A stretch of 64,000 nucleotides of DNA, from assembly GCA_000004695.1 (NCBI GenBank), contig CM000151.3, positions 576,001 through 640,000 on the forward strand, given 5' to 3'. Position 1 is the stretch's first letter. The number at the start of each line of letters is the position of its first letter. The position numbers were made by a program, and so were the translations under genes. Below, piece after piece: positions 42,116 to 44,199 of the stretch. The notes beneath the pieces were generated by a model. The model did not search any database, was not told the origin of the DNA, and saw only the letters and a list, made by a program, of their open reading frames with translations. This DNA is from Dictyostelium discoideum (taxonomy: Eukaryota).

Positions 42116-42266
42116 AATAAAATGGAAAATATTAAAATTTGTAAATGAACATCTTTTATATTTTTTTTACATTTTATTTATTTCATATATTTTTTTTTGG
42201 GAATTTTACAAAAATGTTCTTTTATTTCATATATATTTTTCTATATAATATTTTAATTATATCAAA

Positions 42267-42339
42267 GCCCGTTTAGCAAAGTTGGAATTGCGGCAGCCTT
42301 CTAAGCTGCAGGTCGTGGGATCGAGACCCACAATGGGTG
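42267..42339 (+). tRNA. tRNA-Arg, anticodon UCU.
   Basis: Cloverleaf folds by hand. Acceptor GCCCGTT/AATGGGT, D stem GCAA/TTGC, anticodon stem GCAGC/GCTGC, loop CTTCTAA, T stem GTGGG/CCCAC, discriminator G. A T9 terminator follows directly. Confidence 0.8.
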
Positions 42340-42373
42340 AATTTTTTTTTAAAACTCGACAATAAAGTCGTAG

Positions 42374-42383
42374 GTTCGATTCC
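42374..42383 (+). promoter_or_regulatory. External B box (exB, GGTTCGATTCC) downstream of the tRNA gene.
   Basis: A perfect pol III B-box consensus lies about 45 nt after the tRNA 3' end. External B boxes at this position are a known feature of Dictyostelium tRNA genes. Confidence 0.55.
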
Positions 42384-42399
42384 TTGAAGAATTTACAAA

Positions 42400-44036
42400 A
42401 GATGAAGAAATTCATATTAATAAAATAATCTCATGGTTTATGAATTCTCCCGCAAATTCTGAATCACCAACTCTCAATACCAATTCCATTGAAAATAACA
42501 CATCAACCATCCATTCACGTGCAAAAATACCTTTGATGTGTTATGATAGATCATTAAAACCATTAAAAGAAGGTGGTTGGGGTATGTGGAATATACAATT
42601 ACGACAAGTTGCTCAAAAGATTTGGATATACAACAGATTTTTACAAATGCATAGATCTGCAAACAATTCAATATACATGATAAGTTGGATGGATCAAATC
42701 ATCAACAAATCAATCTCTTCTCCATACCTTATAAAAATCAAAAAAGAATGGGAAAACTATGCAACTCAAATTGGACATCTAAAAGATAAAGTTCAAATCC
42801 TACAACCAATATTAACAAAAAACCAACCCTCTCAAACATTAAACACAAATAATATTTCACTACCACCAACACTCAAAGAAATCTACTCGACAATACTAAA
42901 CAATCACCAATGCAAATCAAAAGACTATATTGGCAAGAAATATTCAGATCTACTTCTTACTTTGCACCAACAATCAATACAACTATTATGGAAATACACA
43001 TACGACCAACTTTTTGTCAAAATTCAAAAATTAAAAGATCCAAAAGGCCGTGATACAATGCAAAGATTCCATGCTAGATGTCTTCCGATTAATCATCTAC
43101 ACAACAAAGTTTGCCCCATTTGCAACAATGAAATGAATAATGATCCCTATGGTCATTTGTTTTTCAATTGTCAGCACACAATCAACTTCATAAACCACGA
43201 CAAATTAAAATATTTTATATATAAAAATTGCAATGGAAACAAAAACTGGTCACTAACAAAAAACCAAACAACAAAATTATACACACTCATTTATAAACCA
43301 CAAACAAACAACAAAGCATTTAAACCAGATCCAACTATCAATATTAATTTTCATTTTGCAGAAAACGCACAATATAAAAAATACAGGTTCAACTGGAATT
43401 ATATAAACACAAATCTTGATCTAGTCAGAACACATGCATATTGGAACATAATCTCATTAGTTATTCACCAAATATGGATATGGTTATGCAAATCATTATT
43501 TGACATCAATATAACTCAATCAATTGATAATTGGAACAACCAAATAAACAACACAACACTAGATTATGATATATTAAAATCAAAATGGCACAAGCTAATA
43601 AGATTGGAATATTCAAGAACTTTATCAAACTTTAACCAATACTCAATTAAAAACAACCTCACAAAAACTCAAAAAGAAACCCAATGGTCCGAAACCATCA
43701 AAAAATTTAAAAAAGAATGGAGCATAAACACTAATGAACATACTATTTTAAATTCACAAAAACTAAAAAACCTAAAATAAATAAATAAAAATAACATACT
43801 AATTGTATACTACAATAGTTTATTTATATCAAAAAAAAAAAAAAAAAAAAATATTTATTCGACAAAATCAAAAAACAACACCCAAATCTAATCTCAATTT
43901 TTGTAGTTCTCTTTTGATGCAGAGTTTAAAGACCAAGCATTTGCAACAATTTTAGCAATCAACGAATCCAAAAGAAGAGACGAGACACCAATACAAGAGC
44001 TCAACAACTGAACCAACCATTTTTTTAAAAAAAAAA
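42400..44036 (+). mobile_element. 5'-truncated non-LTR retrotransposon fragment of TRE3 type (tRNA-gene-targeted retroelement). It carries the C-terminal Cys/His-rich part of ORF2, a 3' UTR and an oligo(A) tail.
   Basis: 446-aa ORF 42440..43780 has no RT motifs but has CPICNNEMNNDPYGHLFFNCQHT. Oligo(A) runs at 43838-43860 and 44017-44036. It sits immediately downstream of a tRNA gene in the same orientation. Its base composition is visibly less AT-rich than the flanks. Confidence 0.55.
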
Positions 44037-44199
44037 AAAAAAAAAATATAAATTAAAATAATAAAACACATTGTTTTTTTTTTTTTTTATAATCTAATAA
44101 ACCTACTCTTTCAGTAGAATCATAGTTTTAATTTTTATTATTTATTTTTCTATTTTTGTTAAAAAAAAAAAAAAAAAAATTGTAATAAATGTTATGTTT

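Follow-up and report, generated by a model that had tools for sequence, protein, structure and literature searches.

Within a 64,000-nucleotide stretch of the Dictyostelium discoideum genome (assembly GCA_000004695.1, contig CM000151.3, forward-strand positions 576,001 to 640,000; hereafter the window), a tRNA-Arg(UCU) gene is followed by an external B box, an open reading frame (ORF) of 446 amino acids, and two oligo(A) tracts. Judged from sequence comparisons, and with a probability that we put at about 0.92, this locus appears to be a functional RNA polymerase III (Pol III) unit, consisting of the tRNA gene, a T9 run, and the external B box, which was hit by a tRNA-targeted retrotransposon of TRE3 type, TRE3-C being the likeliest subfamily. 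The TRE3 copy is a recent, strain-polymorphic insertion and lies upstream of an older oligo(A)-ended fragment at the same landing pad.

Both the external B box and the presence of TRE3 elements behind tRNA genes are already known and have long been described as features of the D. discoideum genome. The importance of the locus beyond annotation hygiene is small: the gene model DDB_G0271576 is shown to be a retroelement remnant. What our analysis adds is the strain polymorphism, an example of a TRE3 copy joined by microhomology without a duplication, and the conservation of the external box and of A54 and A60 of the tRNA at the orthologous locus.

The ORF behind the tRNA gene is the end of a TRE3 element

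A first-pass annotation, made from the letters of the window alone, had described a block of lower AT content encoding a 446-aa ORF with a Cys/His motif and without a reverse transcriptase (RT) motif, and had read it as a 5'-truncated TRE3-type non-long-terminal-repeat (non-LTR) retrotransposon; the description and the reading were both borne out. The GC fraction of the block is 0.25-0.35, as against 0.07-0.2 in the flanks, and its + strand is A-rich. The ORF runs from 42440 to 43780 in a frame that is open from 42383 over 465 codons, and it matches residues 927-1378 of P0013, the 1389-aa APE and RT protein of a full-length copy, at 98% identity. In P0013, the APE domain (PF03372, Exo_endo_phos) covers residues 422-530, the RT domain (PF00078, RVT_1) residues 726-846, and the HC motif lies near residue 1170; of this APE-RT-HC order, the window copy retains the HC part alone. 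A Pfam search with the remnant gave no RT match, its homologues carrying PF00078, and weak RING and zinc-finger matches fell on the Cys/His knuckle (Table 1).

At the nucleotide level, homology to five other copies (one in L001, two in L002, and two in L022) spans 42379-43851 with 93-95% identity in BLASTN. The element had been thought to start near 42395-42440, but the open frame and the homology actually begin at 42383/42384. A private 51-bp deletion removes the normal ORF2 stop of the window copy, whose ORF ends in NEHTILNSQKLKNLK before its stop codon, compared with NEPIPTITPPINY in the other copies; this deletion is bordered by a 3-nt overlap in the split alignment. Because the promoter, ORF1, the endonuclease, and RT are all missing, the window copy is dead.

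All six copies follow a tRNA gene and share its orientation, starting 40, 44, 50, 52, 64, and about 68 nt after tRNA-Val, Arg, Asp, Phe, Val, and Gln, respectively; the genes preceding the five other copies are tRNA-Gln in L001, Val-TAC and Val-AAC in L002, and Phe and Asp in L022. Target-site duplications accompany four of these five (TCTAATTGGTAA and AAATGCATCC in L022, ATCTTTT in L001, and TAAAAAG in L002), and their oligo(A) tails range from A14 to A27. The full-length copy, behind tRNA-Phe at L022 9846-14587, measures 4742 bp plus A19, has the 12-bp duplication TCTAATTGGTAA, and encodes APE and RT. TRE3 elements have been reported to integrate 40-150 bp downstream of tRNA genes and co-oriented with them, the internal or external B box being the target (PMC5911963).

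The published lengths are 4734 bp for Dd_TRE3-C, 5229 bp for TRE3-A, and 5279 bp for TRE3-B (PMC5006619, Table 1), and since the full-length copy has 4742 bp, it fits TRE3-C and not TRE3-A or TRE3-B. A 90%-cluster mate, AAC27746, bears the name 'similar to HC domain of Tdd-3 and DRE' in GenBank. On the basis of the element length and this annotation, the subfamily is probably TRE3-C. With the described TRE3 elements (TRE3-A, which is Tdd-3, TRE3-B, TRE3-C, and TRE3-D), the copies share the ORF2 order of APE, RT, and zinc finger, the oligo(A) tail, the frequent 5' truncation, and the tandem pile-up at one tRNA gene. No difference in kind was found; the window copy is set apart by having no target-site duplication, by lying flush to the external B box, and by its private 51-bp deletion.

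At L022 16418-21167, two tRNA-Asp(GTC) genes lie inverted to each other. Behind one of them is a TRE3-C tail of 200 bp that has the duplication AAATGCATCC, and behind the second a different APE and RT element (1115-aa model) that has an internal A-run before its 3' module.

Table 1 Features of the tRNA-Arg(UCU) locus. Positions are those of the window unless a locus handle is given.
Feature	Position	Strand	Basis
5'-truncated TRE3-family (probably TRE3-C) non-LTR retrotransposon, last ~1.47 kb	42384..43851	+	BLASTN to other copies
ORF2 C-terminal remnant, first ATG 42440, without APE or RT part	42383..43780	+	Open frame, homology to P0013
Cys/His zinc knuckle (HC domain) CPICNNEMNNDPYGHLFFNC, CX2CX10HX4C	43112..43171	+	Translation
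51-bp deletion site relative to other copies	43736..43740	+	Split BLAST alignment to L022 16540-16580 and 16632-16745
Oligo(A) tail A21 of the TRE3 copy	43831..43851	+	Homology to every other copy ends here
Separate older oligo(A)-tailed fragment, A20 at 44027-44046	43852..44046	+	Occurs in ACTFIW and ACTFIY without the TRE3 copy
tRNA-Arg(UCU) gene with A20, A54, A60, and a G1-U72 pair	42267..42339	+	ARAGORN, Rfam, synteny in six other assemblies
T9 run, presumed Pol III terminator of the tRNA-Arg gene	42342..42350	+	Direct sequence reading
External B box, core GGTTCGATTCC at 42373-42383, within conserved block TCGTAGGTTCGATTCC	42368..42383	+	Only exact match in the window, conserved in orthologues
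Spurious first exon of DDB_G0271576	42123..42141	+	P0014 begins MENIKIY-EEIHINK
tRNA-Arg(UCU) genes with A20, A54, A60, and G1-U72	Window 42267-42339; L025 11529-11601; L026 11896-11968; L012 84-156; L017 193-266; L020 530-602

The gene model DDB_G0271576 is an annotation artefact

Two ORFs of the window exactly match proteins of AX4 chromosome 2, namely DDB_G0271644 and the main exon of an acetyl-CoA acetyltransferase. The ORF of the TRE3 copy has likewise been annotated, as the hypothetical protein DDB_G0271576 with an intron, and reading it as a cellular protein-coding gene finds some encouragement in the existence of models in both AX4 (P0014) and ACTFIT (P0031) and in the 465 open codons. 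The model, however, requires a 6-codon first exon spliced over a complete tRNA gene: the tRNA-Arg gene in its full length and the external B box both fall within the implied intron, 42142-42402, and ACTFIT_002179 shows the same invented exon, MENIKI, and the same intron. Furthermore, the sequence is multi-copy and continuous with an APE-RT ORF2 in longer copies, shares its 3' untranslated region and oligo(A) end with other copies, and is missing from five related assemblies. A cellular gene is thus extremely improbable, and DDB_G0271576 is an annotation artefact on a retroelement remnant. The possibility, raised in the first-pass annotation, that the ORF would match a cellular gene rather than the C-terminus of a TRE ORF2 is not what was found.

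The insertion is polymorphic and ends in a microhomology at the external B box

Orthologous loci were reached by way of the rebuilt spliced NIP7, rhomboid, and CLN5-like neighbour proteins; when the BEACH-domain neighbour was used as the query, neurobeachins dominated the matches and no D. discoideum orthologue was found. In this way, a tRNA-Arg(TCT) gene was located at the equivalent site, between the rhomboid and CLN5-like genes, in all six other assemblies: ACTFIT, ACTFIW, ACTFIY, ACTFIZ, ACTFIV of D. citrinum (locus L025), and GCA_054859145.1 (locus L026). The TRE3 insertion is found in AX4 and, with 99.3-99.6% identity to the window, in ACTFIT, and not in ACTFIW, ACTFIY, ACTFIZ, L025, or L026. 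In the assemblies without the insertion, homology to the window stops at 42384 and restarts at about 43854-43890.

At the 5' junction, the empty alleles read GATTCC TGAT, the element at the point of truncation reads CATACC TTGAAG, and the window reads GATTCCTTGAAG. The join is ambiguous within a CCT microhomology at 42382-42384, in the closing bases of the external B box. AX4 no longer has the ancestral bases that follow the box (TGATTAGAA in ACTFIW, TGATAAAAA in L025 and L026), and the 3' flank of the window finds its match in ACTFIW about 281 bp farther along. Either target DNA was lost in the course of the insertion or it was deleted later; the loss amounts to at least ~10 nt and possibly to ~280 nt.

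By analogy with TRE elements and L1, the insertion may be pictured as follows. The TRE machinery would recognise the tRNA gene marked by TFIIIC and its B box, the APE endonuclease would nick the DNA downstream of the gene, and target-primed reverse transcription would begin at the oligo(A) end of the element. For the window copy, reverse transcription would have halted about 3.3 kb before the 5' end, and the end of the cDNA could then have joined the chromosome through the 3-nt CCT microhomology where the external B box ends, with the ancestral sequence past the box being lost at the joining and no target-site duplication being formed.

The abutment of the truncated end on the external B box had also been proposed to mark an integration or TFIIIC-targeting footprint. 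This proposal is not supported, since intact copies, with their duplications, begin at a distance of 11-34 nt from the external box; a flush abutment would accordingly be a repair outcome, reached here by the microhomology join, and not a footprint. The 5'-truncated insertions of mammalian L1, as generally known, are similar in their truncation, 3-nt microhomology, missing target-site duplication, and lost flank. They differ in element family and host, and at the present locus the deletion is deduced from other strains and not from a pre-insertion allele.

Three points weigh against the reading given at the outset. First, a target-site duplication was searched for around the window copy, as the first-pass annotation had suggested, and none was found, whereas four of the other copies have one. 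The missing duplication would be explained by a microhomology join with target deletion, a duplication probably not being obligatory for truncated copies. Second, each lineage has a different sequence after the external B box, which leaves the extent of the target deletion uncertain. Third, the assignment to TRE3-C relies on length and on a cluster mate named only 'similar to' Tdd-3.

A pair of sequences, TCGACAATAAAGTC and TTCGACAAAATC, was considered as a candidate duplication and rejected, its position being upstream of the external B box, which is conserved, and its downstream copy aligning with the ACTFIW flank.

An older fragment lies at the same landing pad

The element had been taken to reach 44036 and to end in more than one oligo(A) tract; it ends at 43851, so that the interval was about 200 bp too long. 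The remainder, 43852-44046, is a fragment of its own, present in ACTFIW and ACTFIY, missing from ACTFIZ, L025, and L026, and dissimilar to the TRE3-C copies. One gene predictor spliced its ACTFIT model into a short open frame within the fragment (FSFDAEF...QELNN, then a stop); a search with this peptide gave no match.

Two oligo(A) tracts in tandem could also be the signature of one element spanning 42384-44046 with a bipartite 3' end, in which a 3' module stands between an internal and a terminal A-run, and another TRE3-type element in L022 does have an internal A-run before its 3' module. Yet all five other copies end at the first oligo(A), after which a duplication or flanking DNA follows, and the distal fragment stands alone, without the TRE3 copy, in both ACTFIW and ACTFIY. 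We consider a single bipartite element scarcely credible, and keep to two separate insertions, the TRE3 copy lying upstream of the older fragment.

The site 3' of the external B box of tRNA-Arg is an insertion hot spot. The DNA in this position differs by lineage (L024 7905-8195; L028 11415-11745; L029 12690-13370; L025 11640-12290), and the differences include short repeats ending in oligo(A) and a repeat that is also found at L022 15195-15306.

The tRNA-Arg(UCU) gene appears to be under selection

The only tRNA that ARAGORN reports in the 64 kb is a tRNA-Arg with the anticodon TCT. It had been described as folding well with an atypical T-loop, and both statements agree with our results. The gene scores 59.2 bits with Rfam RF00005 (gathering threshold 29), and five other D. 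discoideum tRNA genes score 57.9-67.4. Its T-arm reads GTGGG-ATCGAGA-CCCAC, so that positions 54 and 60 are both A, and its internal B box, GGATCGAGACC, has two mismatches to GGTTCGANTCC. Neither its internal B box nor its T-loop is thus of the canonical kind, which would have T54 and a pyrimidine at position 60, and this variant is kept in its orthologues. The gene is followed by a run of nine T, which we take to be the Pol III terminator.

Four assemblies of D. discoideum or D. cf. discoideum have the tRNA sequence of the window unchanged. The T-arm of L025 and L026 reads GGGGG-ATCGAAA-CCCCC, where pair 50-64 has changed from U-A to G-C in a compensatory manner and A54 and A60 are retained. 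An alignment on the cloverleaf, which took in the orthologues and three tRNA-Arg(TCT) genes of metagenomic origin with an identical T-loop, comprised six distinct sequences, with 99.2% of the cells paired and 12 pairs changed on both sides. The syntenic loci of D. purpureum and D. firmibasis contained no tRNA.

One could still suppose a decaying pseudogene whose odd T-loop arose from mutational damage, as A54 and A60 deviate from the elongator consensus and the acceptor stem begins with a G-U pair. However, the score lies within the normal range of Dictyostelium tRNAs, the four assemblies of D. discoideum and D. cf. discoideum share one sequence, the T-stem pair 50-64 was exchanged in L025 and L026 while A54 and A60 were kept, and the terminator and the external B box are both intact. 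Decay is therefore very improbable. Because of its score, its synteny, and the covariation of its cloverleaf with A54 and A60 retained, the gene appears, from comparative sequence evidence, to be under selection and functional rather than a pseudogene. The A54/A60 T-loop, being conserved in the orthologues, is a property of this tRNA and not damage.

The external B box is conserved independently of the insertion

The first-pass annotation had recognised a perfect external B box at 42374-42383, about 45 nt past the tRNA. The box is indeed perfect, but its core spans 42373-42383, beginning 33 nt and ending 44 nt past the tRNA. Exact matches to GGTTCGATTCC number one in the 64 kb, and matches with up to one mismatch number three, against 0.65 expected. 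A block of the form TCG(Y)(W)GG(W)TCGAT(K)(Y)C is retained in the orthologous loci, and the spacer that precedes it differs in length and sequence; the box of ACTFIW has one mismatch (GGATCGATTCC). An origin of the box by template switching onto a tRNA was considered and rejected, the same box being present in strains without the insertion.

For 66% of the tRNA genes of D. discoideum, an external B box has been described ~41 bp downstream (PMC3159450), and a review gives the share of tRNA genes with an external B box as about 80% (PMC5911963). The box in the window, a GGTTCGANTCC-type motif 33 nt past the tRNA compared with the published ~41 bp, agrees with these descriptions; no difference from them was noted, and what is new is its conservation in six other assemblies and a shared block. 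This block, TCGTAGGTTCGAYTCY, occurs in the external boxes behind tRNA-Arg (window 42368-42383), tRNA-Gln (L001 9800-9815), and tRNA-Phe (L022 9819-9834), which are unrelated genes. Taken together, the external B box appears by these comparisons to be genuine. The identity over TCGTAGGTTCGAYTCY exceeds what the B-box consensus requires, and the block resembles a variable-loop and T-arm segment.

It had been suggested that this box compensates for the weak internal one, rescuing transcription that A54 and A60 would impair. An internal box with two mismatches beside a perfect external one invites this idea, as does the retention of the external box in all orthologous loci. Nevertheless, external boxes are also found behind tRNA-Val-AAC, whose internal box has no mismatch, tRNA-Phe, whose internal box has one, and tRNA-Gln (a small sample), and because these follow canonical or near-canonical internal boxes, nothing links the external box to a weak internal one. 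Moreover, the external box of ACTFIW is itself mismatched, and eukaryotic initiator tRNA genes, as is general knowledge, carry the same A54/A60 box and are transcribed with it. The compensation is unsupported, and we regard a rescue function as unlikely; the box is better taken as the usual companion of a Dictyostelium tRNA gene.

tRNA-Arg(UCU) has an elbow resembling that of initiator tRNA

The conserved, initiator-like elbow in an elongator tRNA is the sole mildly unexpected item at this locus; the retroelement is not. The trio A20, A54, and A60 constitutes the initiator-specific elbow of eukaryotic initiator tRNA-Met (PMC10602860), and tRNA-Arg(UCU) has all three. It differs from the initiator in being an elongator with the anticodon UCU, in pairing G1-U72 where the initiator pairs A1-U72, and in having no G-C run in the anticodon stem. 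The Dictyostelium orthologues retain A20, A54, and A60 as well as an invariant G1-U72 pair, alongside the compensatory change in the T-stem (Table 1).

If every Arg(UCU) gene shares this elbow, tRNA-Arg(UCU) could conceivably be a Dictyostelium-wide elongator with an initiator-type T-loop, a suggestion that we make tentatively and hold to be doubtful at present. Such a T-loop, if confirmed, could matter for m1A58/T54 modification, for eEF1A binding, or for recognition by TFIIIC.

The elbow features of tRNA-Arg(UCU) were not found in 185,579 prokaryotic genomes, where all eight matches to the T-arm pattern were something other than tRNA-Arg, and a full-text literature search with the T-arm sequence returned unrelated primers only. 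Among metagenomes, 16 of the 19 matches to the T-arm pattern were not tRNAs, and the same elbow features were seen in three tRNA-Arg(UCU) genes from unrelated metagenomic contigs.

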